Shown here: piece by piece, positions 5,366-50,269 of the stretch
Position numbering within the stretch: the stretch's first letter is position 1
Layout of the letters: each line of letters starts with the position of its first letter
Notes under the pieces: generated by a model
The model's database searches: none
The model's input: the letters and a program-made list of their open reading frames with translations, nothing else
What the model was told of the DNA's origin: nothing
From: a virus
Length of the DNA stretch: 64,000 bases
Direction: 5' to 3' (one strand)
Virus record (IMG/VR): IMGVR_UViG_3300020469_004256
Coordinates: 5,590 to 69,589 of that record
Translations under genes and position numbers: made by a program

Positions 5366-5400
5366 TATTTTGCCTCATTGTTATTTAACATAGTTTTCTA

Positions 5401-5432
5401 TATTATAGCATCATATAGGTATCTGTCAACCA
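5401..5432 (-). promoter_or_regulatory. early sigma70-type promoter, copy 1 (TTGACA-16-TATAAT with TGn extension)
   Basis: TGG TTGACA GATACCTATATGATGC TATAAT; near-identical to the copies at 30868 and 35943. Confidence 0.8.
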
Positions 5433-5474
5433 TAAAGATGCCTAAAAAATTTATTATTTTGTTGACTGTTTGCA

Positions 5475-5500: not shown

Positions 5501-6133
5501 ATGAAGGAAAAAACAATGAGAAACCCATTTTTTTACGTGCCAGATATAGAATACGATCAGAATGAATTAAAGCAAATATTAGAAACAAAATGTAAATGGA
5601 TGGAAATGGACGGCACTGCTGACGCTCCGTTACTATCTAAAGAGGATGTTCCTGATAGTATTAGAAAGTTTTTCAACTACACAGATCCATTTGCCACATG
5701 TGGTTATGTTAAAGTAGATGTAAAGTACGATTTAGTGCCGCACGAAGATGAACAGATTTTAGCCCCTGTGTTTGAGAGCAAACACCAACTTGCTGGTTTA
5801 CCACAGTATTACGTTGATTGGTTACGCATTATTGGGTCAAGAGATTGGGGACTATCGTTTCCAGTTTCTGGAGACTTTACCAATGTTGTTACTAAAATGT
5901 ATCACAAACATAATGAAGAATACATTGATGAATTTTCTTTAAACACTGCTCCTACATTTTTTCGTACTAGAGGTGAATATTTACATGGTGTTGTTAATAC
6001 ATCAAGTGAACCAAGAATATTATTTCAATTGAGTTTTAAAGGTCATGATATGTATGAAGCATTTGTAAATAACACATATCCATCATGTGCTAGTAAAGAA
6101 GAAGTTTTAAATAGAAATAAAATTAATCAGTAA
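5501..6133 (+). CDS. Fe(II)/2OG-type double-stranded beta-helix oxygenase-like protein
   Basis: VPHED ... LHGVVN ... RILFQLSF (HxD...H...R). Confidence 0.65.
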   Translation: MKEKTMRNPFFYVPDIEYDQNELKQILETKCKWMEMDGTADAPLLSKEDVPDSIRKFFNYTDPFATCGYVKVDVKYDLVPHEDEQILAPVFESKHQLAGLPQYYVDWLRIIGSRDWGLSFPVSGDFTNVVTKMYHKHNEEYIDEFSLNTAPTFFRTRGEYLHGVVNTSSEPRILFQLSFKGHDMYEAFVNNTYPSCASKEEVLNRNKINQ

Positions 6134-28762: not shown

Positions 28763-29616
28763 TATTGACTTGCCCTAACTTTTCTTTTTAATTTTTCTGT
28801 AGCATCTGCCCATTGTTCTTGGGAACTGTCTACTGGCAATGTCAGTTCAATGGTTGCTTTCGTTTTGGCTCTATTATATTTGAAACCTTCAGGGCAAACC
28901 TTTTGTAAGAATTGTTCTGCCTGTTCATTAACTCTATTTTCGCAATGAAGACCTACTTTGATCGATCCTTTTAGGCTATGAACATAGGCCATATATCGAT
29001 TGTCTAGTTCTGGAAGTCTATGCCATAGAGTAATAGCATTTTCGTTGGCTTTCTTGTAATCTTCTCTCTGTATTGACCATTCCGCACCATATATCTTAAC
29101 GAATTCAGCATAATGATTTAACACCGTATCAGGTGTAGGAATAATCTCTGTGTCTGTGAACAAGGCAGGCTCATATGTGCCTTCGTCTGTCCACTGACTC
29201 TTAACAGCATGAATGTTATATTCTCCCATTTGTGTGGGACGTTTATGATATTTCTCTCTCCATTTGTCTAATAGATCTAAATAAATCTGATCAATTGATT
29301 CACATAGCAGTACCGTTGCCAATATCTTATAGTTCTTAACCGCTAGTACGTCTGCATAACCTTTGGTCTTGAATACATGAGTTTGATCTGCTCGTCCTGT
29401 TAAGTCCTGATGTTCGTACACGATCACATCACCCTTTACTGTATATGCAACCACATCAATTTGTCCACCGTGAATACCATACTCATTGGTTGCACTAGTA
29501 ACACTAGGTAATCCTAGTAACTTATTAATCTTGTTAAGGTCATTAATTCCTATATCAGTTGCTAGATGTTGAGTAAACTTGGTTTCTAACTCATACTGCT
29601 CTCTGAGTGTTTTCAT
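28762..29616 (-). CDS. PD-(D/E)XK-like nuclease-fold protein (DUF4268-associated/NucS-like)
   Basis: E...IDVVAY...VIVYEHQ...DQTH motif. Confidence 0.55.
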   Translation of the reverse strand: MKTLREQYELETKFTQHLATDIGINDLNKINKLLGLPSVTSATNEYGIHGGQIDVVAYTVKGDVIVYEHQDLTGRADQTHVFKTKGYADVLAVKNYKILATVLLCESIDQIYLDLLDKWREKYHKRPTQMGEYNIHAVKSQWTDEGTYEPALFTDTEIIPTPDTVLNHYAEFVKIYGAEWSIQREDYKKANENAITLWHRLPELDNRYMAYVHSLKGSIKVGLHCENRVNEQAEQFLQKVCPEGFKYNRAKTKATIELTLPVDSSQEQWADATEKLKRKVRASQ

Positions 29617-30842
29617 TATACGTTCTCGTAGTGAGTTGTTATTCCAAATGGTGCTTCAAGGTCTTTGTCATGATTTGAATGTATCACCCAAAGTGTATCA
29701 CAATAATTGTCATCACCCCATGATCCCCAAGGATAACCATCTGTGAACACAATCAACTTTTTAGGTTGTACTCCATTATCTTTCATCCAAGTCCAATTGG
29801 CTTCAAACTCAGTACCACCAAAGCCACCCGGCTTGTAATCTGTGATATCTTTGTCTGGTGTAAACACTTCTGGATTATGAACTTCTGTGTCAAAACTCCA
29901 CACATGAACTTTGTAATCTTGGAATGAATCCATTATACCTTTTACTTCACCTAAGAATATATTCAATTGCTTTTCACTAATTGATCCTGATGTATCAATA
30001 GCAACACACACATCAACTGCTGGATCTGGTTGTAGTCCAGGTAGTATAGCATCAACTGACCAACCTTTTCTACTAGGTCTTAAAAATGAATAGTCTGATT
30101 TTACAACTGATGTTATATGTTGATCTAGTAATGATCTCCAATCCATTTTAGGCTCAGTCATATTTTTGATCAAACGTTCAACACCTTTAGGCACATTACC
30201 TGCTCCAGCCGCCTGTGCCGCCTGTAGTACTGCATTTTTAATTTCATCTTTTAACTTGTCTTTGTCTGCTTTAGACATCACAGGTCTTTTGCCTTTACCA
30301 TCTTTGCCGTCACCATCTTTACCTTGTCCTTGACCTTTATCACCTTCACCATCTAAGTGCATATCAAGAGTAACTTTGATTTCAACTTGATTCTTTTTTA
30401 GTTCAGTATATATTTCATCTGAGTTTTTATCATAGTACTTAGGATCAAGTAAACCTTCTTTAGGCATTTTACCTAAACCTTCACGAACCAATTGCCCGTT
30501 AATAACATAGTCAGTTGCCATGTTCCAAATCTGCGGATCTCTACCTTCACGTCTTTCCATATGATCATATACACAGTGCATAACTTCATGCCCAATAAGG
30601 AAATCAAGTTCTTCCGAAGTTAATGGTGTGATAAATTCTCTACTATAAAATAAATGTAATCCATCAGTGGCCGCAGTAGGACACCAATCATCAGCATTTT
30701 TAAGTTTTAATCTTGTTGCAAGATTGCCAAAGAATGGATGTTTTAACAGTAGACGAACTCTACTTTGTACAATTCTTTCACGGATTTCGTGGTCTTCTTG
30801 GACTTTAATCTTTGTTTTTTTTATTGCAGTTTTTGTTGCCAT
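29616..30842 (-). CDS. DUF2201-type metallopeptidase fused to a VWA domain
   Basis: TAATDG, HEVMH (HExxH), MIDAS DTSGS, GGTEF, FTDG. Confidence 0.92.
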   Translation of the reverse strand: MATKTAIKKTKIKVQEDHEIRERIVQSRVRLLLKHPFFGNLATRLKLKNADDWCPTAATDGLHLFYSREFITPLTSEELDFLIGHEVMHCVYDHMERREGRDPQIWNMATDYVINGQLVREGLGKMPKEGLLDPKYYDKNSDEIYTELKKNQVEIKVTLDMHLDGEGDKGQGQGKDGDGKDGKGKRPVMSKADKDKLKDEIKNAVLQAAQAAGAGNVPKGVERLIKNMTEPKMDWRSLLDQHITSVVKSDYSFLRPSRKGWSVDAILPGLQPDPAVDVCVAIDTSGSISEKQLNIFLGEVKGIMDSFQDYKVHVWSFDTEVHNPEVFTPDKDITDYKPGGFGGTEFEANWTWMKDNGVQPKKLIVFTDGYPWGSWGDDNYCDTLWVIHSNHDKDLEAPFGITTHYENV

Positions 30843-30867
30843 GTATCTCTCTCCTTATTATGTATAT

Positions 30868-30904
30868 ATAATAGCATCATATAGAGATCTGTCAACCAGA
30901 AAAG
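30868..30904 (-). promoter_or_regulatory. early promoter copy 2 (37-bp exact repeat)
   Basis: Identical to 35943..35979; TTGACA-16-TATTAT with TGn. Confidence 0.85.
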
Positions 30905-31007
30905 TGGTTAATTAATCCAGTAAAACTGGCACTTTTTATTAAAATAGTGTATAAAGGATAAATATACTTGTATATTATACACAATAACAAATATAGGAGA
31001 GCTCAAT

Positions 31008-32828: not shown

Positions 32829-33875
32829 TTAATTTTTGTCTTCAACTTTTTTGTTTTTGTATATTCCTTTTAACCCACATGCCCTAATGCATTTACGTAG
32901 ATGTTTAGGATGTGATGCATACCATCTTGATTTTAAAGACTTGTAAAATTCTGTTTGTAATATATCGCTGATTGAATGTTTGTTAAGATCGTTAAAATCT
33001 CTATCGTTGGTTTGTGTAATTTGTTCATACATATGAATTGAATCACCGTACAAGAAACAACAAGGCCACAGTGTCATATCAGCCGCTACAAAGCATTCTG
33101 GTTCTTCGTAATGTTGACAAGAAAGTGTGTGAACTATATCATCAACTACTTTAGGATCTTTAGATGTATAAATTTCTTTTAGTTTTTGTAAATCATTGTG
33201 TGGAAGTTTTTTAGAATTGTTTAATTTTACTTCTTCAACTACTGTAACACTTTTTTGTTTTTCATCTTTAACAACTAATGGTTTTCTTGGCTTGTGTTTT
33301 TTATTTTTGTTGAATTCATTTCTACCACTAGTTCTTCTAATAAATCTCATACCAAGTTCATTTGCTAAACTTTTTGCATCTTCGTAATCATCTTCATTAT
33401 GATCAAATGGTATAAAAACCCAATTGGCTTTGCCACCTGCACCCATGTATGCTCTCATATTTCTTTCTAGTGTTGACCAATTTACATTTACTCTGTAGAT
33501 GTGGTTAGTATCTTTAAATCCATCTACACTGAAGTCAACATACAAGTTTTCTAGTTTGGCTAACTTTGCCCACCATTCTGCATTTTGATACCCACCATTT
33601 GTGCTTAAATTTATTCTTCCACCAAAGTTAGAAATATATTCAGCAATTTCAAAACATTCGTTATTGAGTATAGGATCACCTAATACTCCGCACAGTTTAA
33701 ATTCTTTGTTATCACAAGATTCTCGTGTTGGAAAAATTTGTTTGATGTTTTCAAATGTAAGTTCGTTATTGCCTCTCAATTTCATGCCCATTTCAGTTCT
33801 AGCACACAGAGGACATTCTGCATTACAGTTAGCAGTTATTTCTAGTTCATATTTTTGGATATGTTTTTCTAACAT
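32829..33875 (-). CDS. radical SAM protein (likely start MLEKH), paralogue of 2663..3778
   Basis: CNAECPLC, GVLGDP, STNGG, NHIYRVNVNW, WPCC, CIRAC. Confidence 0.9.
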   Translation of the reverse strand: MLEKHIQKYELEITANCNAECPLCARTEMGMKLRGNNELTFENIKQIFPTRESCDNKEFKLCGVLGDPILNNECFEIAEYISNFGGRINLSTNGGYQNAEWWAKLAKLENLYVDFSVDGFKDTNHIYRVNVNWSTLERNMRAYMGAGGKANWVFIPFDHNEDDYEDAKSLANELGMRFIRRTSGRNEFNKNKKHKPRKPLVVKDEKQKSVTVVEEVKLNNSKKLPHNDLQKLKEIYTSKDPKVVDDIVHTLSCQHYEEPECFVAADMTLWPCCFLYGDSIHMYEQITQTNDRDFNDLNKHSISDILQTEFYKSLKSRWYASHPKHLRKCIRACGLKGIYKNKKVEDKN

Positions 33876-33879
33876 TGCT

Positions 33880-34131
33880 TTACTTTCGTAATTTTGCATC
33901 ACCATGGTAGCATTCTGGTGGTTGCGTGTACTGTGGTGAAAGTGTAGCATCGTATTCAAATCTAGTATTACAATACAAACAAACTTTATAATCTTTATCA
34001 CCCATTGTCATATAAACATGAGGATGATCATTTGGTGGTTCAGCACCTATACAAACAAAACCTTTGACACCAATCTTTATTACAGGTACTCCTATATCAT
34101 TTTTGTATGACGGTGTTGCGTTGGTATCCAT
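33880..34131 (-). CDS. zf-CHCC zinc-finger protein (NDUFS6-like)
   Basis: CIGAEPPNDHPHVY...CLYC. Confidence 0.88.
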   Translation of the reverse strand: MDTNATPSYKNDIGVPVIKIGVKGFVCIGAEPPNDHPHVYMTMGDKDYKVCLYCNTRFEYDATLSPQYTQPPECYHGDAKLRK

Positions 34132-34132
34132 T

Positions 34133-34342
34133 TTAGTGTATAGTTTTATGATTTTTTAGTATTCCATGTTTGCTCATATTTATATACAATTTGTTTTTAG
34201 TTTTTTTCCAAAACTCTAAAGCCCAGTCATCAGTTGATCTGTCAATTGCTTTGTCACAGTTTTCTAAAAGTCTATTGTACATTTTTTCTAGTTGTTGTTT
34301 AGTTGTTATTATCATTATTTTTGTTTTTTTCCTTGTGTCCAT
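34133..34342 (-). CDS. hypothetical protein
   Basis: ORF track. Confidence 0.65.
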   Translation of the reverse strand: MDTRKKTKIMIITTKQQLEKMYNRLLENCDKAIDRSTDDWALEFWKKTKNKLYINMSKHGILKNHKTIH

Positions 34343-34728
34343 TGAGTGTAAGAATCTTCAGCAAATTTAAATATTTTAGAAAGTTGCAAAGATGCTTTTG
34401 CTGAAATTGATTTTGCAAATATTTCTTCAATGATCATTTCATTTTGATTTACATGTGGGTCAACCCAGTATTCTTTATTATGTTTGTGTATACGATCGTG
34501 ACATATTTCAATTTTTAAGACTGACTTGTTGTCATTAGATAAAAAGTTGCCATTAAACCAACCTGCTTCTTTTATTTTTTCGTCTGCTTCTTGTTGAAAT
34601 CCTGCTTGTTTTTCTTTTGAATCTATTTGTCTATTACTACAAATATTAAAAAAATGTTCAACATTTTGCCATTCTGTATCTGGATGTTTTAAACTTTTTA
34701 TTTTATAAATTTTTATACTTGCCTGCAT
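34315..34728 (-). CDS. hypothetical protein
   Basis: ORF track; GATAAGTA element just upstream. Confidence 0.65.
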   Translation of the reverse strand: MQASIKIYKIKSLKHPDTEWQNVEHFFNICSNRQIDSKEKQAGFQQEADEKIKEAGWFNGNFLSNDNKSVLKIEICHDRIHKHNKEYWVDPHVNQNEMIIEEIFAKSISAKASLQLSKIFKFAEDSYTQWTQGKKQK

Positions 34729-34755
34729 AGTAATACTTATCCTTTTTATTAGGGT

Positions 34756-34804
34756 GGGGAACTGATCTACATTTAAGAGCAGAGAGAGGCAGATTCAGTT
34801 CCCC
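34756..34804 (-). other. stable 3' hairpin after the AAA+ gene with a CU-rich loop
   Basis: GGGGAACUGA(A)UCUGC-CUCUCUCUGCUCUUAAAU-GUAGAUCAGUUCCCC; no U-tract follows on the minus strand. Confidence 0.75.
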
Positions 34805-34814
34805 TAACAGCATT

Positions 34815-35906
34815 CTAAACGTCTACGATTAGTTTGCCGTATCTTTTATAAAACTCCTTAAAGCTCACAAGCTCTTTAGGGGAAAACGGTAGTTGATGAT
34901 TCTTAAGAGCAATTCTTGCCCCAAGTACTACCATTTCAGTTTCAAAATTGTCCATCATATATTGTAGAAAACAGTCTGCCATCTTGTGCCAAGCCGCCAT
35001 CTTCTTGTTCTTCTGCGCCTTTTCACATTCGTCTTTTAGTTCATAACACAATGAAGTAATCAACGAGTACATAGCACTCACTTCTTTTGTATCAAGTTTC
35101 TTAACCTTACCAGTTAAAATATCTGTTGGGTTAGGAAGTTTACCTGCTACATCTTTATGAGCATTAAATTTTACTGCAAGACCTTCACCTACTGCACCAG
35201 TAATGATGTCTGTAAGTTGTGAGCCTTGTAAATTACTTGACTCTAACATATCACTTACAAAAGACCAACTTCTTGGAGTAGCAAATGCTCTTGATGAGCT
35301 TCTAGGATCAAAGTCATACAAGTCATTTTTAGCAAATGTCAAGTAACCAACCACATCAGGGTGGATGTTATTATTAGTTGCCCAATCTTGCCAGTCTTCA
35401 AAATTAACTGCCATTTCAATATGCAACATTCTGTTAGCAAGTGGACTAGGCATTCTGTAAGTAACACCTCTGTCACTTTCTCTATTACCAGCCGCCACAA
35501 TCGATACTCCTTCTGGCAATACATAAGTACCAATTCTTCTGTTAAGAATTAACTGATACGCCGCCGCCTGTACACTTTGTGGTGCCGCATTAATTTCGTC
35601 TAAGAACAAAATAGATGTGTCCTTAGGATCACTTGGAAGATCAACTGGTGGTGCCCAATCCATTTTATTTTCTTTAGAATTAAAATATGGAATACCACGT
35701 AAGTCAGTTGGTTCTAAAAGAAGCAATCTAAGATCAATCACTCCTCTATCAGTATTCTTACCAATCTGTTCAATAATTTCTGATTTACCAATGCCTGGAG
35801 GACCCCATAACATAACGGGTCTTTTAGCATCGATACAAGCAAGTACCTCAGTCATTACATCACTGGGTCTTACTGTTCTAGCGTCTGTTGTTGTTGTTTT
35901 AGCCAT
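34815..35906 (-). CDS. MoxR-like AAA+ ATPase
   Basis: Walker A GPPGIGKS, Walker B LFLDE, AAGNR, LANR, TPRSW. Confidence 0.93.
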   Translation of the reverse strand: MAKTTTTDARTVRPSDVMTEVLACIDAKRPVMLWGPPGIGKSEIIEQIGKNTDRGVIDLRLLLLEPTDLRGIPYFNSKENKMDWAPPVDLPSDPKDTSILFLDEINAAPQSVQAAAYQLILNRRIGTYVLPEGVSIVAAGNRESDRGVTYRMPSPLANRMLHIEMAVNFEDWQDWATNNNIHPDVVGYLTFAKNDLYDFDPRSSSRAFATPRSWSFVSDMLESSNLQGSQLTDIITGAVGEGLAVKFNAHKDVAGKLPNPTDILTGKVKKLDTKEVSAMYSLITSLCYELKDECEKAQKNKKMAAWHKMADCFLQYMMDNFETEMVVLGARIALKNHQLPFSPKELVSFKEFYKRYGKLIVDV

Positions 35907-35942
35907 CTTAACCTCTCTCTTTGTTAATTGTTTATATTATTA

Positions 35943-35979
35943 ATAATAGCATCATATAGAGATCTGTCAACCAGAAAAG
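35943..35979 (-). promoter_or_regulatory. early promoter copy 3 (37-bp exact repeat)
   Basis: Identical to 30868..30904. Confidence 0.85.
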
Positions 35980-36038
35980 CACATTTTTCTGGCCAAAAAA
36001 ATCCAATAAACTCAAGGCTTTTTTAAAAAAATTAAAAA

Positions 36039-36419
36039 TTATTCAAAATCTGGTGAGTAATTTTGAGTATTTACTGTGATATTTCGTGACCAAAGTTCAA
36101 CATCACCATCAATTAATTTGAGATCCACAGCATCTTTTTCATTGAATACCACAATTTTCTTGTTGTCTATGTAATATGGAAGAAGCATCTCCTTCTCTAA
36201 ATTATACACATGAATAGACTTTACACTAAATGGCTGTTTCACTTTAATCACATATGATGGAAAGTGTTGTTCTAATATTTGTACACCAATTTTTGTCAAT
36301 CGTAATGAGTTATCGCTCAACCTACTCACAAACATGTTGAGTATTTGTGCTTCTGTTATGCCTTTTGATTTGACATAGTCAACGACAATGCGTTTATTAT
36401 GGTTGATAATGTTTGACAT
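36039..36419 (-). CDS. hypothetical phage protein
   Basis: ORF track; SLRLTKIG, PYYI. Confidence 0.75.
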   Translation of the reverse strand: MSNIINHNKRIVVDYVKSKGITEAQILNMFVSRLSDNSLRLTKIGVQILEQHFPSYVIKVKQPFSVKSIHVYNLEKEMLLPYYIDNKKIVVFNEKDAVDLKLIDGDVELWSRNITVNTQNYSPDFE

Positions 36420-36744: not shown

Positions 36745-38730
36745 CTACATATAACTTACTAAAATTTTGGCACTTCCGGTAGTTGCGGAGCCTATATTTA
36801 AGTAAGCATTAATAGTTGCGTCTGAGCCTGTAGTGTATTGATATGCTGGCTGTATAGCATAAGTGCCTATTGATGTTAAATCTATTTCGTCATTGGTTAC
36901 AAGTCTATCAGTATCACCTGAATCACCAACAGTTAGTGTTGCGTCAATGTTATCAAATGCTTGTGTAACTTCAATTGATACCAATGTAATTCTTGAACCA
37001 TCTGACACAGTGCCAATTGCTGTAGTGCCTGTTCCACCTGACTGTGCAACTGTTCCGTCAATAGTGTTTGCATCTGTGTTTGCAGAATCTTCATCTGCCA
37101 ATAAGTTCCATGCACTACCATTGTAAACAAAGAATGCATACTCACCGTTGCCTGAGTCAATAACATAAACAGTATCACCAGTTGTGGCTGATAGAGCATT
37201 TCTTGCCGTAATATCATTTACGACTGTTGTACCACCGCCACCACCACCTGCAACAATACCTTGTTCTACTGTTACTGCCAAAGGATGTCTTCCATTGTGT
37301 ACTGAATATACCCCTAGGCTTGATAATGGTGTACCTGTTGTTTCATCTAATAAAATTTCACCACCATCTGCTCTTGTTAATTTTATATATGCTCCTGATG
37401 ATGCTGATGTAGATAATGCCCACCCTGTACCTGATGATGCACCTGCTACTGGACTACCATTACCATCATTTGTTACATTCACAATAGTAATTGTTCCACC
37501 TGTTGAATTTGATAATACAACATCCGAACCAGATGCTGACGCTGTAATGTTTGTAACATTTGCCGCATTAACATCTGCTATGATGTCTGCACCAATACCA
37601 ACTGCAATACCATAAGCGGCTTGACCTGCTGTTGTGGTTGAGAATGTTACTGACGTTCCGTTAATTGTTATTTCACCACCTGGATAAACACCAACCAATC
37701 CATATGCTAAACTTAATGTTGAAGTTGTTGCTGTCGATGGAGAAGGTGAACTTGATGCTGTTACACCATGTGTCGATGTACTGCCATTAATGTCTGCTAT
37801 TGTCTGTGTTAGTGTTGTGCTTGTTAGTGTAACTGCTGTTTCATTAATTTCTAATACGTCATTTGCTGTTACTGTTGGATCTACCACTGTACCTGTTACT
37901 GATGATGCAATAGAATCTGCTATCTTTAAAAACTGTATTTTGCCTGATGTTGAAGTAGTTGTTAAGCCACCTGCTGTTGAATTATCTGTGTAAAGAAAAT
38001 CTCCAACCGATCCAGGTATTGCAGGATTAAAATCAATAATTCTTGTGTTTGGTCTTAACATAAATTGATCTGGTCCTGGTCCTGGGTTAGTTACTGTACC
38101 AATTGTTTTCGCCGCTGTTGATGCCGTTGTTTTAGCGAAACCTGATGGTGTGATTGATATAACATCGCCTGAGCTAAAACCATGTGATGCTTGATCTAAT
38201 ACATAGTGCATCTGTGGGTTTAAATATTGAAATCTTGAGTTAATGTTTTGATAAAATGTTTGTGATGTGATTGAAGCTGGTACTGGATCTATCATTGGGT
38301 GTCCGTTTTCATTTAATTGAAAACACACTGCTGACCCTACTGCAAATACACCAGAACCTGATGGTGATCTAAATGTGTTATATCTCAACCAATCTTCTAC
38401 CACACAAACTATAGAAGTTGTTGTTTTAGATGTTATAGAAACAATTCTACAGCATATACCAGATGTTGCACCTGATATCCAATCACCTACTTGAACATCT
38501 AAACCATTGTATTGAAAATCTTTTCTTGTTAAGTGAGATCCGTGATCTTGTGCTGTAACTGTTGCTGTTACTGTCCATCTATAATATTTTGGGTTACTAC
38601 CACCTGAATACCATTTATCACCTTGTCCATCATTGTGTGGCCACTGTGCATCGTTGGCAATGTTTGTTATGTTAAGACTTAAAACTTTTGCTGGTTTATT
38701 TACATCAATAAAATTGGTTTTGTAGGCCAT
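36745..38730 (-). CDS. virion structural / tail-associated protein
   Basis: 661 aa, Thr/Ser/Gly-rich beta character; follows the fibre gene. Confidence 0.7.
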   Translation of the reverse strand: MAYKTNFIDVNKPAKVLSLNITNIANDAQWPHNDGQGDKWYSGGSNPKYYRWTVTATVTAQDHGSHLTRKDFQYNGLDVQVGDWISGATSGICCRIVSITSKTTTSIVCVVEDWLRYNTFRSPSGSGVFAVGSAVCFQLNENGHPMIDPVPASITSQTFYQNINSRFQYLNPQMHYVLDQASHGFSSGDVISITPSGFAKTTASTAAKTIGTVTNPGPGPDQFMLRPNTRIIDFNPAIPGSVGDFLYTDNSTAGGLTTTSTSGKIQFLKIADSIASSVTGTVVDPTVTANDVLEINETAVTLTSTTLTQTIADINGSTSTHGVTASSSPSPSTATTSTLSLAYGLVGVYPGGEITINGTSVTFSTTTAGQAAYGIAVGIGADIIADVNAANVTNITASASGSDVVLSNSTGGTITIVNVTNDGNGSPVAGASSGTGWALSTSASSGAYIKLTRADGGEILLDETTGTPLSSLGVYSVHNGRHPLAVTVEQGIVAGGGGGGTTVVNDITARNALSATTGDTVYVIDSGNGEYAFFVYNGSAWNLLADEDSANTDANTIDGTVAQSGGTGTTAIGTVSDGSRITLVSIEVTQAFDNIDATLTVGDSGDTDRLVTNDEIDLTSIGTYAIQPAYQYTTGSDATINAYLNIGSATTGSAKILVSYM

Positions 38731-38733
38731 CTA

Positions 38734-41700
38734 TTAGCCTCCCATTACCACTTGTACCCATGCATGAGTAGTTGTACCAAACGATCTTGATGCTCCTGAG
38801 TCACTCTCTGCCGCTTTAATTTTTATTGAACCAAATGATCCAAATGCTGTTGGTGACCCTGTTGATCCACCGCCTGGTATTTCTCTCAATGTAATATCTT
38901 TGTTCAAAGGATTCATTGTGTATTTGTTTGATGCATACACATAACCATATAATGTAAGACTTGCTGGTGGATAACTGTAACCTGTAAAGTTGATTGTTAT
39001 ATCACCACCTGATGCTGAATCAATTGATACACTTGATATACCTGATGATGTATCTGTTATACTTGATAATGTACCATTTGTTGCATAATTAATTTTAAAC
39101 ATTTCAACTCCTGTTGAACCGCCACCTGATGCAGTTGCTGGTTTCCAGTAACTGTTTGCGTTGTCCCAAGTAAGTACCTGTCCATCTGTTGGTGCTGTGT
39201 TATTAACATTTGATAAATCAGCAATGTCTGCCGCACCAATACGTGCATCTGCTCTTGCATCTGTGTAATATAAATTTGCACCTTCTGAAACATCATCTGT
39301 TGTTAATGAATCCCAACTTAACTGTCCTGAACCATTGGTTTTTAAGTATTGGTTTGCTGAACCATCTGCCTGCGGCCATTTTTGACCATCAAGTATGATA
39401 TCGCCTGTGCTGTGTGGAGTAATTGTAATATTACCATTTGATGCTGTTGTTGAAATTCCTAAGTTACCTGCCGCTGATACTTGCGGTGATGCTCCAGTAG
39501 TTGTTACTGAACCAACTGTTAATGCATCAGTTGTTTTGTTGTATGTAAATCCTGCGTCTCCACCAAATGATCCACCATCATTGAATTGAACCTGTGTGTC
39601 TGAACCAGCAACACTGCCACCTCCACTTGATTGTGCCACCCAAGCATAGTCTGAACCGTTCCATGAAAGAACATATCCATTTGTTGGATTTGATTGATTT
39701 AGGTGTGCGTCAACATCTGAGTTTGCATAAAGTTGACTTGTTAATGCTACTGTACCGTCTGCATCTGGTAAGTTAATTGTTCTGTCTGCTGTTGGATCAA
39801 TTGCTTGAAGTTTTGTTTCATTGTTGTCTGCTGTTGAACCTTCAAAACTAATACTTACGATACTGTTGATGTTTGGATCTAATTCTAATGTAACATTGTT
39901 TGCGGCAATGCCTGCATTAATTTGTCCAGTAGTTCCTAAGAACGTTAGTGTTTCTGTCGCAGTGTTGAATGTGTGTGAACCAGTGTTACCTGCAAGACCG
40001 AATGTTCCGCCTCCTGCCGCTTTCCATTTAAATGCAGTTGATGAATGATCGTAGTATAATACTTTGCCATCATCTGATGCTGAAATTGTATCAACATCAC
40101 TTAATGTTGTTAAACCTGCCGCCGCTATTCTGGCATCAGCTCTCGCATTTGTATAATATAAGTTAGAACCTTCTGATAAATCACCAGTGTCTTTTGCCGC
40201 TAGTCTTGTGTCAAATGCTGAGTTATCAAATAATGTTGTGTCACCTGCAAGTGCTGTTGTAGAACTTGTACCTAATTGTAATGAGTCAGTAATTCCATAA
40301 CCTGCTATTGTAGTTGGTTTGCCTGTTAGTGAAGCAAATGACTGTGCTGGTACTGATGTTAAATATCCTGCACTTGCATGATTGCCCCAACCATATGCTG
40401 TGTTCCAATTTGCCGAGCCAGCCGCAACAATTCTTGCATCTGCTCTAGCATCTGTGTAATATAAATTTGAACCTTCTGATAAATCACCAGTGTCTTTAGA
40501 ACTTAGATCTAAGTTAGCACCAGTTTGTAAATTAACTCTTGCATCTGCTCTTGCATCTGTGTAATACAAGTTTGTGCCTTCTGTTAAATCAGTTGTTGTT
40601 GATGAACTTTCATCTAATAATTTTCTCCAAGCACCACCGTGTGCAAAGTAACCTTTGCCTGTGCCATGTACGTGAGCAAACATACCGTGATATGTTGCCG
40701 CACTTGGTAAATCGCCTTCAGCACTGTAAACGTTTGAATATAAAATTTTACCAGAAACAGTAAGATCGTTTGTTGTTTTGTTGTAAACTATTCCTGCGTC
40801 ACCGCCCATTACACCACCGTCATTAAATTGTACGTATGTGTCTGAACCAGCCGCCGTTGCCGCTGTTACTGTTGCGTTTTCCCAACGTGATGAACTTGCA
40901 TTGTATTTTAAGAATTGATTGTTTTGAATTGATGATATTGTAACATCATTCATTTCACTTAATTCGTTTTCACTTGCTACTTGTGAGTCAACGTATGCCT
41001 TAACTGATTGCTGTGATGGAAGTCTAGTAGCACTGTCTGATGCCATATTGTCTTCATCAATCAATGCATTTGTGATTCTTGCATCTGCTCTAGCATCTGT
41101 GTAATATAAGTTTGTGCCTTCTGCTAAATTAGTTGTTGATTTTGTTGCTAATCTTGTGTCAAAGTCTGCATTGGCTCTTGCACTTGTGTAATACAAGTTC
41201 GAAGAACCTTCTGTTACTGTATCTGTATCGCCTTGTGTAAATGTTAGTACACCTGTGCCACTGTTGTATGAAAGTTGTGCTGATCCTTCACTAATTGCCG
41301 CTCTTGCTCTTGCATCTGTGTAATATAGATTTGCACCTTCTGTCAAGTCACCTGTGTCTTTGGTTGCTAATCTATTGTCAAAATCTGTGTTTGTGTAACC
41401 CGAGTTGCTAATCCATGCATAGTCTGAGCCGTTCCAACTCAATACATAACCTGAAGTTGGATTTGATTGGTTTAGATGTGTATCAATTGCACCGTTCAAT
41501 CCTGCTGTTGTTTGATAACCTGCCGCACCGTGATCTCCCCAACCATATGCTGTGTTCCAGTTTGCCGAACCTGCCGCAGTAATTCTTCCATCTGCTCTTG
41601 CGTTTGTGTAGTATAAGTTAGATCCTTCTGCTAAATCACCTGTGTCTTTGGTTGCTAATCTTGTATCAAATGCTGAGTTATCAAATAATGTTGGCTTGCC

Positions 41701-44040
41701 TGTTAAGTCAGCATAAGCACCACTGAATGCATCTGTAATTCCGTAACCTGCTATTGTTGTTGGTTTACTTGTTAAATCTGCAAATACACCTGAAAACAAT
41801 GCTGTATTACCTGCAAGTGCTGTTGTGGCACTCGTACCTATTTGTAATGCATCTGTAATTCCGTAACCTGCTATTGTAGTTGGCTTGCCTGTCAGTGAAG
41901 CAAATGACTGAGCTGGTACACTTGTTAAGTAACCTGCACTGCCATGGTCACCCCAACCATATGCTGTAATAAATTGTCCTAGATTTGTATCAGTTAATAC
42001 ATTCGTGCCCATGTCAATTGTGTTGCCATTGGCATCCAGTGTCCCACCAAGTTGTGGAGTAGCATCATTCACTATGTCTGTGATACCACCTGTGCCATTT
42101 GCCACCCATGCATAGTCTGAACCGTTCCAAGAAAGAACGTAACCACTTGTTGGACCACTTTGATTTAAGTGGGCGTCAACGTCACTGTTAGTGTAAGAAC
42201 TTCCTGATGCATCTACTTTCCATTTAAATGAAGTTGATGAATGATCATAGTATAAAACTTTTCCATCGTCGCCTGCCACTACTGCATCAACGTTTGATAA
42301 ATCTGTTAGTGATGCCGCTTGTACTCTAGCATCTGCTCTTGCGTTGGTAAAGTATAAGTTTGATCCTTCTGCTACAGCACCTGTATCTTTACTTGCTAAT
42401 CTTGTGTCAAAGTCTGTATTGAAACTTGAGTAAACTGTGTCTGTATCATTTGCTGGTGCCCATCTTGAGTTACCATTATCCCATTTTAATACTTGTCCAT
42501 CTGTAGGAGCCGCTGTGTGTACGTTTGCCAATGCGTTAATGTTTGCCGCACCAATACGTGCATCTGCTCTTGCATCAGTAAAGTATAAATTTGCACCTTC
42601 TGTTGTGATGTCAGTTGTTAATGCTTGGTCAACCCATGCACTACCATTGTGGTATAAAACTTCTCCTGATGCTGGTGTACCAATTGTTGTATCTGTTAAA
42701 CCTGCAAGTGTTGTTGTAGTTGAAACACCTGTAAGTTGTGAACCATCTACTGCTGGTAATCTACCTGAACCATCTAGTTGTACAATCTTACTTGCTGTTG
42801 TGCCTACATCAACGTTTAGTGTTGCATCACCTGATGTTGCACCACCTGTTAAACCTGTGCCTGCAACAACTGATGTAATATCTCCTGCTCCACCACCTGT
42901 CTGTGCCACCCATGCATAGTCTGAACCATTCCAACTTAACACATATCCTGCTGTTGGATTTGATTGGTTTAGATGTGTGTCAACTCTTGCATCTGTGTAA
43001 TATAAATTTGTACCTTCTGATACATCTGAAGTTGACTTACCTGATAGTCTTGTATCAAATGTACTATTGAAATCTGCTGTTGCTAATTTTGTTGCAATAC
43101 TATTTGTTATCGTTGTTGAAAAGTTTGCATCATCACCAAGTGCCGCCGCTAGTTCATTTAATGTGTCTAGTGTGCCTGGTGCTGAGTCAACTAAATTTGC
43201 TACCTGTGTATTAACATAAGTTTGTGTTGCAACATCTGATGTAAATTCTAATGCTGTTTCACCTGAGTTAACTCTTACAAATTTTCCTGCGTCACCTGTA
43301 AGGTTTGATGGTGTGTCTGACAAGCCAACGAAAGTAGATGAACCACCGCCACCTCCACCGCTGTTGTTGTCTGCACCAATTTCCCATTGTCCGCTTGATG
43401 AATTATATTTTAATACTGAACCATTTACTGCTCCTGCAACATCAACATCGCCAATGTTTGCTATCGAATCAATTGCTCCGGCAGTTGATGCTCTACCATA
43501 AAAGTTATCAGCATAAATGTTGGCCCATTTGTATGAGTTTGAACCTAATGAGTATGTGCTGTCTGTGTCTGGTAATTGGTTTGCATTATTTTTTAATGTG
43601 TTTGCATCTGTTTCTGCTTTTGAGTATACGTCTAAATTTGTTCTTGCTGTTGCTACTGAAGCCAATGATGCTAAATTGTCTGATTTTCTTAAAAAGTCTG
43701 AAGCCGCTACACCACCTAATTTGCCTGCGTCAACATTGGCATTAAGTTGTAGTGTTAAGTCATTTGTGTTTGAGGTTACAGTGATACCGCTTGCCGCGTT
43801 TGCGATAATTGATTTTAGTTGTAAATTATCACCTGATTTACTTGTGAATAACCCAGAACCTGTGCCTAGGTTTAATGCTGTTGTATCGTTTGATGCTGTG
43901 ATAGTGATGTTGTTTGCATCTGCTGTTAATGTTACATTAGTACCGCCTACAAGACCTTTGAATTGCAGATCTACACCTGACTTTTGTGCAAAAATCCCTT
44001 GACCAGTACCTAAATTTGACGCCGTGTTTATTTCAGACAT
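38734..44040 (-). CDS. long tail-fibre-like virion protein built from shuffled repeats
   Basis: LDTLNELAAALGDDANF fibre motif; 11x EGxNLY(Y/F)TxAR; 4x HLNQSxPTxGYVLSWNGSDYAW; 3x KPTTIAGYGITD; late promoter AATAAATA upstream. Confidence 0.85.
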   Translation of the reverse strand: MSEINTASNLGTGQGIFAQKSGVDLQFKGLVGGTNVTLTADANNITITASNDTTALNLGTGSGLFTSKSGDNLQLKSIIANAASGITVTSNTNDLTLQLNANVDAGKLGGVAASDFLRKSDNLASLASVATARTNLDVYSKAETDANTLKNNANQLPDTDSTYSLGSNSYKWANIYADNFYGRASTAGAIDSIANIGDVDVAGAVNGSVLKYNSSSGQWEIGADNNSGGGGGGSSTFVGLSDTPSNLTGDAGKFVRVNSGETALEFTSDVATQTYVNTQVANLVDSAPGTLDTLNELAAALGDDANFSTTITNSIATKLATADFNSTFDTRLSGKSTSDVSEGTNLYYTDARVDTHLNQSNPTAGYVLSWNGSDYAWVAQTGGGAGDITSVVAGTGLTGGATSGDATLNVDVGTTASKIVQLDGSGRLPAVDGSQLTGVSTTTTLAGLTDTTIGTPASGEVLYHNGSAWVDQALTTDITTEGANLYFTDARADARIGAANINALANVHTAAPTDGQVLKWDNGNSRWAPANDTDTVYSSFNTDFDTRLASKDTGAVAEGSNLYFTNARADARVQAASLTDLSNVDAVVAGDDGKVLYYDHSSTSFKWKVDASGSSYTNSDVDAHLNQSGPTSGYVLSWNGSDYAWVANGTGGITDIVNDATPQLGGTLDANGNTIDMGTNVLTDTNLGQFITAYGWGDHGSAGYLTSVPAQSFASLTGKPTTIAGYGITDALQIGTSATTALAGNTALFSGVFADLTSKPTTIAGYGITDAFSGAYADLTGKPTLFDNSAFDTRLATKDTGDLAEGSNLYYTNARADGRITAAGSANWNTAYGWGDHGAAGYQTTAGLNGAIDTHLNQSNPTSGYVLSWNGSDYAWISNSGYTNTDFDNRLATKDTGDLTEGANLYYTDARARAAISEGSAQLSYNSGTGVLTFTQGDTDTVTEGSSNLYYTSARANADFDTRLATKSTTNLAEGTNLYYTDARADARITNALIDEDNMASDSATRLPSQQSVKAYVDSQVASENELSEMNDVTISSIQNNQFLKYNASSSRWENATVTAATAAGSDTYVQFNDGGVMGGDAGIVYNKTTNDLTVSGKILYSNVYSAEGDLPSAATYHGMFAHVHGTGKGYFAHGGAWRKLLDESSSTTTDLTEGTNLYYTDARADARVNLQTGANLDLSSKDTGDLSEGSNLYYTDARADARIVAAGSANWNTAYGWGNHASAGYLTSVPAQSFASLTGKPTTIAGYGITDSLQLGTSSTTALAGDTTLFDNSAFDTRLAAKDTGDLSEGSNLYYTNARADARIAAAGLTTLSDVDTISASDDGKVLYYDHSSTAFKWKAAGGGTFGLAGNTGSHTFNTATETLTFLGTTGQINAGIAANNVTLELDPNINSIVSISFEGSTADNNETKLQAIDPTADRTINLPDADGTVALTSQLYANSDVDAHLNQSNPTNGYVLSWNGSDYAWVAQSSGGGSVAGSDTQVQFNDGGSFGGDAGFTYNKTTDALTVGSVTTTGASPQVSAAGNLGISTTASNGNITITPHSTGDIILDGQKWPQADGSANQYLKTNGSGQLSWDSLTTDDVSEGANLYYTDARADARIGAADIADLSNVNNTAPTDGQVLTWDNANSYWKPATASGGGSTGVEMFKINYATNGTLSSITDTSSGISSVSIDSASGGDITINFTGYSYPPASLTLYGYVYASNKYTMNPLNKDITLREIPGGGSTGSPTAFGSFGSIKIKAAESDSGASRSFGTTTHAWVQVVMGG

Positions 44041-46563: not shown

Positions 46564-46590
46564 ATCACCCTCCTTTGGTTAAAGTTAGGT

Positions 46591-46634
46591 GCGTTCCTTC
46601 GCTTTATGCTACTTCCGTCCCGTAGGATGAACGT
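46591..46634 (-). ncRNA. glutamine-I (glnA motif) riboswitch
   Basis: ACGUUC-A-UCC UACG GGA-CGGAAGUA-GC AUAAA GC-GAAG-GAACGC: P1 CGUUC/GAACG, UNCG-capped P2, E-loop AGUA/GAA. Confidence 0.85.
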
Positions 46635-46650
46635 ATGAGTATTTAGCCAT

Positions 46651-49864: not shown

Positions 49865-50269
49865 CTATATGTCGCCTTTTTTTCTGTTTTCACTTTTGGC
49901 CACATCAAATTCACCTTCTGGATATCTGGCCATAAGTTTTTCTTTATTCATAGTAATTACTTTGTTAGGATCAACACCAAGTGCCATACAACCTTGTGTC
50001 CAATACCACATAACATCACCAAGTTCTTTAGTCATATGTGTTTTGGTTTCTTCTGTTAGTGGCTTTCCTTGAAACACTAGTTTTTTTACAATTTCTGTAA
50101 ACTCTCCTGATTCTGCTGATAATCCCATTGCCGCAGTTAGTAATCTTGGAACATCTCCATTTCCTAAATCATCTAATCTTTGTCTAAATGCTGTTGAATC
50201 TTTAGATTCGTTGCTGGTAACTTTATCCACAAACTGTGAATATTCTTTTAAATCAATCTCTGACATCAT
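49865..50269 (-). CDS. MazG-like NTP pyrophosphohydrolase
   Basis: GLSAESGEFTEIVKK...ELGDVMWY...NKEKL.ARYP. Confidence 0.9.
   Translation of the reverse strand: MMSEIDLKEYSQFVDKVTSNESKDSTAFRQRLDDLGNGDVPRLLTAAMGLSAESGEFTEIVKKLVFQGKPLTEETKTHMTKELGDVMWYWTQGCMALGVDPNKVITMNKEKLMARYPEGEFDVAKSENRKKGDI

Follow-up and report, generated by a model that had tools for sequence, protein, structure and literature searches.

A phage MoxR-like AAA+ ATPase gene with a 3' hairpin loop complementary to its own ribosome-binding site: a candidate fold-back brake on translation

AAA+ gene and its 3' hairpin

The DNA analyzed here (the window) is a 64,000-nucleotide (nt) stretch, positions 5,590 to 69,589, of the IMG/VR virus record IMGVR_UViG_3300020469_004256, a 69.6-kb fragment estimated to be 19% complete. 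Contigs of its relatives are 320 to 350 kb long, some with terminal repeats, and therefore point to a jumbo phage (marine samples). On its minus strand, the window carries a gene predicted to encode a MoxR-like AAA+ ATPase, followed in its 3' untranslated region (3' UTR) by a hairpin whose loop is complementary to the ribosome-binding site (RBS) of the same gene. An earlier note on this DNA, made from the letters of the sequence, had drawn attention to this match and had proposed that the hairpin either folds back on its own mRNA or gives rise to a small RNA. The promoter, gene, hairpin, and following gene are listed below in the direction of transcription.

35943..35970, minus strand: promoter of the sigma-70 type, near consensus (TTGACA-16-TATTAT), in which TG precedes the -10 box
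35907..35936, minus strand: 5' UTR of the AAA+ mRNA, as predicted from the promoter position
35911..35920, minus strand: Shine-Dalgarno (SD) region AGAGAGAGG(U), partner of the loop
34815..35906, minus strand: MoxR-like AAA+ ATPase gene, 363 amino acids (aa); Pfam AAA_5, AAA_3, and AAA; phrog_1297 'ATPase' (E = 1e-100)
34756..34804, minus strand: 3' hairpin, with a stem of 13-14 base pairs (bp), one bulged A, and a 20-nt loop
34804-34790, minus strand: 5' arm of the hairpin, GGGGAACUGA-(A bulge)-UCU(G)
34789-34770, minus strand: loop of the hairpin, 20 nt
34776..34789, minus strand: loop core CCUCUCUCUGCUCU, of which the first 9 nt are the anti-RBS; invariant in the clade
34769-34756, minus strand: 3' arm of the hairpin, (U)AGAUCAGUUCCCC
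34752..34755, minus strand: conserved RCCC directly 3' of the stem, kept across relatives
34315..34728, minus strand: downstream gene, 137 aa, with no family

The hairpin starts 10 nt past the AAA+ stop codon and has a fold energy of -24.5 kcal/mol (z = -3.0), with an equally good fold in 1 of 200 shuffled sequences. Loop nt 1 to 9, CCUCUCUCU (34789-34781), are the exact reverse complement of the SD region AGAGAGAGG (35920-35912), which lies at positions -14 to -6 relative to the ATG of the AAA+ gene (35906); the coordinates and the 9-nt complement given in the earlier note were confirmed. A duplex of the two segments would contain 9 Watson-Crick bp, or 10 bp counting one G-U. The loop and the 5' UTR were both predicted to be unpaired, and the first 20 nt of the predicted 5' UTR were single-stranded in the minimum-energy fold of the whole mRNA. 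The loop also holds UCUUAA and the RBS side holds UUAAGA, as had been noticed before; their order bars an extension of the same helix, and UUAAGA is missing in several close relatives.

No U-tract follows the stem, in agreement with the earlier observation (the tail is ACCCUAAUAAAAAGG). With this tail, a 20-nt loop, and no entry in the terminator scan, the hairpin does not have the makeup of an intrinsic (Rho-independent) terminator. Searches of Rfam returned only a glutamine riboswitch, located elsewhere, for the whole window at the gathering score, and zero matches for positions 34650-36050 at E values up to 1 and for seven related loci.

The AAA+ transcript would start near 35936, as judged from the position of the -10 box, and RNA-library contig ends at 35912 and 35923 give a weak hint of a 5' end near the expected one. 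A promoter was predicted directly upstream of the gene, and no terminator was predicted before the hairpin, as expected if both lie on a single transcript; the RNA-library contigs that cover the region are fragmented and lack transcript ends, and DNA carry-over into them is possible. One of these contigs, identical to the window, spans 34455-34925 and leads from the AAA+ gene through the hairpin into the next gene, which is probably cotranscribed through the hairpin.

The 9-mer has only two sites in the window, where 0.16 would be expected by chance, and at least two sites were obtained in 1 of 100 shuffles. A 9-nt match between the start region and the 80 nt past the gene's own stop codon was found for 3 of the 76 window genes. 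By duplex energy, the AAA+ gene ranked first among the 76 (-20.3; next, -15.1; median, -7.7). Taken by itself, the window is suggestive; the comparison with relatives decides.

Complementarity between start and 3' regions among relatives

Orthologous AAA+ loci were collected from IMG/VR and metagenomes (401 loci, in which start region and 3' region form 251 distinct pairs); prevalence figures from this collection are biased by the choice of queries, and the type labels used below skipped a few weak members. In the first sample, which had not been selected for the feature, start/3' matches of at least 9 nt were present in 14 of 61 distinct AAA+ loci versus 3 of 730 other open reading frames (ORFs) of the same loci (Fisher test, P = 3e-14, a figure that ignores relatedness). 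The element is restricted to the AAA+ gene and is retained, with different sequences, in several clades. When start regions of one clade were set against 3' regions of another, matches of at least 9 nt occurred in 33 of 2762 pairings. Among nine representatives, own pairs matched over 9 to 12 nt in eight, versus a mean of 5.5 nt and a maximum of 9 nt for cross pairs; the ninth (L064, type D) has 5 Watson-Crick nt, or 9 bp counting G-U. The own-pair sum of the nine was reached in 0 of 100000 permutations, a result that tests specificity and not existence, because the representatives had been picked for their matches. The warning in the earlier note that a low-complexity match of this length can arise by chance is apt for the window, where the match is borderline, but not for the comparative data, which lie well above chance.

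In clades other than that of the window, the 3' region holds complements of 8 to 12 nt to the gene's own start region. The pairs, each given as start segment / 3' segment, are listed by type.

Type A (clade to which the window belongs), 26 distinct pairs: AGAGAGAGG / CCUCUCUCU
Type B, 10 pairs: (A)GACUCUCAC(AU) / (AU)GUGAGAGUC(U)
Type C, 53 pairs: core CACAGCC / GGCUGUG, kept in 52 of 52 analyzed, with flanks that vary (GAACACAGCCC / GGGCUGUGUUC versus GGACACAGCC / GGCUGUGUCC)
Type D, 8 pairs: GGAGUUAAC / GUUGACUCC, including one G-U
Types E and F: GGAGCGCAA / UUGCGCUCC; GGAGCAACUA / UAGUUGCUCC; GUGACUAAGG / CCUUAGUCAC; GAAAGGAGUA / UACUCCUUUC

A type B leader that is shorter by two bases (GACUCUCAUG) goes with a correspondingly shorter loop (AUGAGAGUC), and position -10 of type C pairs as G-C in 18 cases, G-U in 13, and A-U in 9. 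In a phylogeny built from 237 distinct proteins, the 23 rows of type A and the 10 rows of type B each formed one clade (support, 100 and 99, respectively) and type C was largely a single clade; presence and absence of the element require at least 14 changes on this tree. The start segment that pairs corresponds to the SD (-14 to -6) in type A and to the spacer up to the AUG (-9 to 0) in types B, C, and E, which argues that the complementarity is not a generic Shine-Dalgarno affinity. The earlier note had suggested looking for covariation of loop and RBS among related phages; the outcome was mixed but on balance favorable. Across clades, the translation initiation region and the 3' element do switch together, and the complementarity is evolutionarily maintained; within the window's clade, however, no covariation was found, and type A gives conservation only.

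Display of the complement takes two forms, a hairpin loop and a stretch immediately past the stop codon. For types A, B, and C, it begins 25 to 37 nt (median) past the stop codon, and a stem with 5 bp or more encloses it in 18/18, 10/10, and 52/53 loci, respectively (80/81); in types D, E, and F, it begins 2 to 7 nt (median) past the stop codon and is followed by a terminator. Type B stems have 19 consensus pairs, 6 of them with compensatory double changes (7 of the 10 sequences used), and in type C, a stem of 12 bp is conserved and leads into a U-rich tail (24 of the 53 sequences used). For type A, a MAFFT alignment of the hairpins misaligned the stems and left RNAalifold only 8 pairs, so sequences were folded singly; this gave 31 distinct hairpins with stems of 11 to 16 bp, 12 distinct 5' arms, and loops of 20 to 26 nt.

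The loop core of the window's clade is frozen. CCUCUCUCUGCUCU was identical in 23/23 aligned sequences and in 31/31 distinct hairpins, down to 72% protein identity, despite replaced stems. The RBS varies among AGAGAGAGG, CAGAGAGAG, and GCAGAAAGAGG with no compensating change in the loop, and 16 of the 26 distinct type A pairs keep 9 to 10 contiguous bp. In the relatives at 72% identity, a separate terminator lies downstream of the hairpin, and the hairpin is therefore a 3'-UTR element itself and not the terminator. The 69.6-kb record contains one copy of the loop core, as does a complete relative of 328 kb, in which the AAA+ start region (12/14) is the sole near-complement of the 14-nt core located at a gene start; another lies inside an ORF. 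A scan of viral contigs with a 15-nt loop core gave at least 118 hits, most of them unrelated low-complexity sequence; a hairpin context was found for 2, both of them known relatives.

Variants of the arrangement were seen in types B and C. In the type C locus L532 (G008:81173-84183), the terminator stem consists of an anti-start copy, GGGCUGUGUAG, and a mimic of the start region, CUACACAGCCC, and the 3' region of the AAA+ gene holds a second anti-start copy in the loop. In type B loci (including L296, L298, and L289), about 55 to 75 nt past the stop codon, the 3' arm of the hairpin contains GGUAGGU, the likely SD of the next gene, whose AUG lies within about 10 nt; the type B hairpin may also gate this downstream gene.

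The start motif of type C was also considered as a marker of a wider regulon. In five complete type C genomes (G004-G008), CACAGCCCATG-like 11-mers (at most 1 mismatch) occurred 10 to 27 times per genome versus 2 to 4 times for the reversed control, which makes them 3 to 9 times commoner; in the genome inspected, they lie mostly inside ORFs. The motif was rejected as a marker, since 26 of 27 sites in this genome lacked the combination of exact match, SD, and long ORF, which was found only at the AAA+ site. One site with 1 mismatch in the same genome is accompanied by GGAG and a 250-aa ORF.

Proposed fold-back control and competing explanations

Because relatives keep the start/3' match while using different sequences, the element is probably a built-in brake on translation. 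The reading favored here, with a probability of roughly 0.55 on sequence evidence, is that the anti-RBS in the 3' UTR folds back on the start site and limits the translation or the stability of the AAA+ mRNA, as in icaR of Staphylococcus aureus. Pairing in vivo would act in cis and would be repressive. After transcription of the 3' end, the loop would pair with the SD and spacer, either on its own mRNA or on a sister copy, and the paired start site would be hidden from 30S subunits. Translation would then be largely confined to nascent transcripts or to mRNAs held open by ribosome traffic, and mRNAs without initiating ribosomes might decay faster, by analogy with icaR and with reporters in Bacillus. 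More speculatively, a ribosome that terminates would cover the element itself in types D, E, and F and would extend to the stem base in the hairpin types A, B, and C, so that traffic might keep translated mRNAs open. The stems of type B (19 to 22 bp) are possible substrates of RNase III, and cleavage would detach the anti-RBS. At about even odds, this extends to a phage MoxR-ATPase family, mostly from uncultured aquatic jumbo phages, that would carry a coevolving clamp on the SD, spacer, and AUG of its start site, with the mRNA closed into a loop, and would be made mainly from nascent or ribosome-loaded transcripts.

Fold-back autoregulation had been one of the two proposals of the earlier note; the distinct start/3' pairs across clades speak for it, but the drift of the type A RBS without change in the loop does not, and several further observations weigh against it. 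Ten of the 26 type A pairs carry (GC)AGAAAGAGG, with an A-C mismatch and only 6 to 7 contiguous bp (5 + 5 bp around the mismatch, with 9 to 12 of 14 positions paired). As the RBS drifts against a fixed loop, type A displays conservation of pairing potential and not covariation, and the invariance of the loop calls for an explanation beyond the RBS. The nested ensemble probability of the 9 pairs was only about 0.26, for a pairing of loop to outside that is a pseudoknot and falls outside the folding model. The nested minimum-energy fold of the whole mRNA instead pairs GAGGU of the RBS with the conserved ACCCU after the stem, where the RCCC may be a second, weaker anti-SD. Duplex energies of sense and antisense strands showed no asymmetry (P = 0.2), and sequence alone therefore cannot separate pairing of the sense RNA from an inverted repeat at the DNA level. 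A plain terminator or an overlapping next gene was found in 146 of the 251 distinct pairs. Six cultured relatives (PA5oct, Phosso, Atu_ph07, 121Q, XaC1, and SCTP-2) lack the element and have plain terminators or a chance 7-mer; S-TIM5 was left out of this comparison because its next gene overlaps.

The other proposal of the earlier note was a small RNA derived from the 3' UTR that silences genes sharing an AG-repeat RBS. In this form, the hairpin would act in trans on AG-rich SDs, mainly those of the AAA+ gene and of a partner gene with a von Willebrand factor A (VWA)-like domain, and would coordinate a chaperone pair.

29616..30842, minus strand: partner gene, DUF2201_N metallopeptidase plus VWA-like domain (phrog_1314)
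30845..30895, minus strand: promoter copy (30868-30895) and RBS GGAGAGAGA (30845-30853) of the VWA gene, which the loop may target secondarily

The AAA+ and VWA genes of the window have the same promoter and an AG-repeat RBS, and the GAGAGAG that had been reported for the partner gene does lie inside its RBS, at 30847-30853. The VWA RBS is an AG repeat in three of four genomes of the clade (GGAGAGAGA in two and CAGAGAGA in one), and a VWA leader with a 7-nt complement to the loop was found in 3 type B loci. With two targets, the unchanging loop core could be accounted for, and VWA could be a second target that helps to explain it. Action in cis and in trans cannot be told apart from sequence, as for icaR (PMC3868564). 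However, among 77 start regions of the window, that of VWA is only 4th for pairing with the loop, below two unrelated strong-SD genes; the fourth genome of the clade has the RBS GGAAGAGC; and in types B to E, the VWA start matches the element over at most 7 nt versus 9 to 12 nt for the AAA+ gene's own start. The target motif was essentially unique in the complete genomes checked. The low rank of VWA and its poor matches in the other types favor a target on the AAA+ mRNA itself, in the same molecule or in another copy, and a small RNA acting in trans is judged unlikely.

Explanations in which the complementarity is a by-product are a further step down in plausibility. The hairpin might be mainly a 3' stabilizer, a weak terminator, or a protein site (a CU-rich loop bound by S1 or a phage protein), with the match to the RBS as a side effect of a pyrimidine-rich, anti-SD-like sequence. 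A loop core that is fixed while the RBS varies would fit this explanation, as would the general affinity of CCUC loops for strong SDs (the genes at 49865-50269 and 36745-38730 score -18.0 and -17.5, respectively) and the terminator-like U-rich stretch after the type B and C hairpins. It is harder to reconcile with types B, C, and E, whose complement is directed at the gene-specific spacer, and even at the AUG, instead of a generic SD. A protein site would not follow the start of one gene through at least six unrelated sequence pairs, and other ORFs of the same loci have no such matches.

An inverted repeat at the DNA level, flanking the gene as the ends of a mobile or recombining cassette or as paired operators and having no function in RNA, has a slim chance. 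The strand comparison above leaves room for it, the region contains repeated promoter cassettes, and the order of the AAA+ and VWA genes differs among relatives. The 3' copy, however, lies in the loop of a hairpin with a covarying stem, both copies are inside one predicted transcript, and the match always falls on the SD, spacer, or AUG and not at the gene borders; each lineage would moreover need a DNA-binding or recombination protein that coevolves with a site of 8 to 12 bp. Chance, in the form of a low-complexity 9-mer that happens to be present twice, is scarcely credible: 9-nt matches do recur among window genes at the rate given above, and AG and CU repeats are of low complexity, but the match is conserved in all distinct hairpins of the clade, has analogs of unrelated sequence in other clades, and is concentrated in AAA+ loci.

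Fold-back on the gene's own start site has its closest known counterpart in icaR, in which the 3' UTR pairs with the SD of the same mRNA, blocks initiation, and creates a site for RNase III (Ruiz de los Mozos et al. 2013, PMC3868564). The two systems share a 3'-UTR segment complementary to the gene's own SD or start region, which in icaR is a pyrimidine-rich motif (UCCCCUG) and in the window a stretch of 9 Watson-Crick bp plus one G-U, and the choice between cis and trans is left undecided for icaR as well. They differ in that the icaR 3' UTR is long (in the >100-nt group) and has an interaction of about 40 nt that makes an RNase III substrate, whereas the phage element is a compact hairpin or a short stretch after the stop codon, comprises 8 to 12 bp, and is known from comparison across clades. 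In Bacillus subtilis reporters, a distal, pyrimidine-rich 8-nt anti-RBS, including one in the 3' UTR, pairs with the RBS, lowers mRNA, and inhibits initiation; repression by these inserts, placed hundreds of nt away, depends on context (Gill et al. 2025 preprint, PMC12697547). Those inserts are synthetic and natural genes are depleted of them, whereas the phage gene family retains one at a fixed place. The hbs mRNA of B. subtilis, with a 14-bp interaction of 5' and 3' UTRs (Braun et al. 2017, PMC5737220), is alike in the short long-range pairing between both UTRs of one mRNA. The hbs pairing differs in that it modulates RNase Y cleavage in the leader and leaves the SD uncovered, whereas the phage pairing would cover the SD, spacer, and AUG.

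Among phages, a 3' sequence of T7 gene 1.2 mRNA pairs with the RBS until RNase III removes it, and in sib retroregulation of lambda, a 3' element controls an upstream gene. Measured against T7 gene 1.2, the stem in the window (13 to 14 bp) is short for RNase III, and the type B stems would fit better. In the toxin-antitoxin system hok, pairing of the 3' end with the 5' region keeps the full-length mRNA inert and imposes temporal control until 3' trimming activates it. The phage version proposed here would resemble hok in the silencing of the complete transcript by pairing of its 3' end with its 5' region; signs of 3' trimming or of a toxin-antitoxin system were not seen for the phage gene, for which no test aimed at either was made. 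Fold-back of hok mRNA is also mentioned in the icaR paper (PMC3868564). A literature search, for which subscription journals and supplements were out of reach, returned no description of the element and no phage precedent.

The novelty would lie in icaR-like pairing of 5' and 3' UTRs in phages in a compact form, with a 20- to 26-nt hairpin loop or a stretch after the stop codon and a pairing of 8 to 12 bp. Natural bacterial mRNAs that control translation by pairing of their ends are very few; the natural 5'/3'-UTR pairings cited in the Bacillus reporter study are icaR and hbs (PMC12697547), neither of which came from comparative evidence. If the fold-back reading is true, bacterial viruses would have their first 5'-3' UTR interaction that is backed by lineage-specific sequence replacement, and a natural counterpart of the long-range anti-RBS effect known from synthetic reporters. 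The clades with unrelated pairs are ready natural "compensatory mutants." The element hints at posttranscriptional control, by phages, of the dose or timing of a chaperone-like ATPase. Should the reading be confirmed, the comparison of a start region with the gene's own 3' region would serve as a search rule and could yield small, portable parts for tuning expression.

Partner gene, promoter cassettes, and neighboring features

The VWA partner gene lies 4 kb downstream of the AAA+ gene and is separated from it by a radical SAM/SPASM gene (32829-34001, minus strand); in many relatives, the AAA+ and partner genes are adjacent or overlapping. A chaperone pair of MoxR and vWA-peptidase has been described in group 2.2 jumbo phages (Iyer et al. 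2021, PMC7824862), and the window, with a MoxR-class AAA+ protein plus an N-terminal metallopeptidase-VWA fusion, contains such a pair.

An identical 37-nt promoter cassette precedes the AAA+ and VWA genes, and a third, diverged promoter copy lies at 5429-5402. The three copies of this early-type cassette span 35940-35991, 30865-30916, and 5399-5450 (minus strand). Upstream of the AAA+ promoter copy, the -35 box directly adjoins a perfect hairpin of 8 bp, CCAGAAAA...UUUUCUGG. The cassettes resemble the promoter/stem-loop cassettes of T4-type phages.

The glutamine riboswitch (RF01739; 50.2 bits) is at 46588-46635 on the minus strand and is followed by a basic ORF of 51 aa (46563-46408, minus strand). 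This arrangement resembles the riboswitch-controlled small glutamine synthetase-inactivating factors of cyanobacteria. A 1768-aa ORF at 38734-44040 (minus strand) contains many internal repeats (families D1-D9) and has matches to tail-fibre and structural PHROGs.

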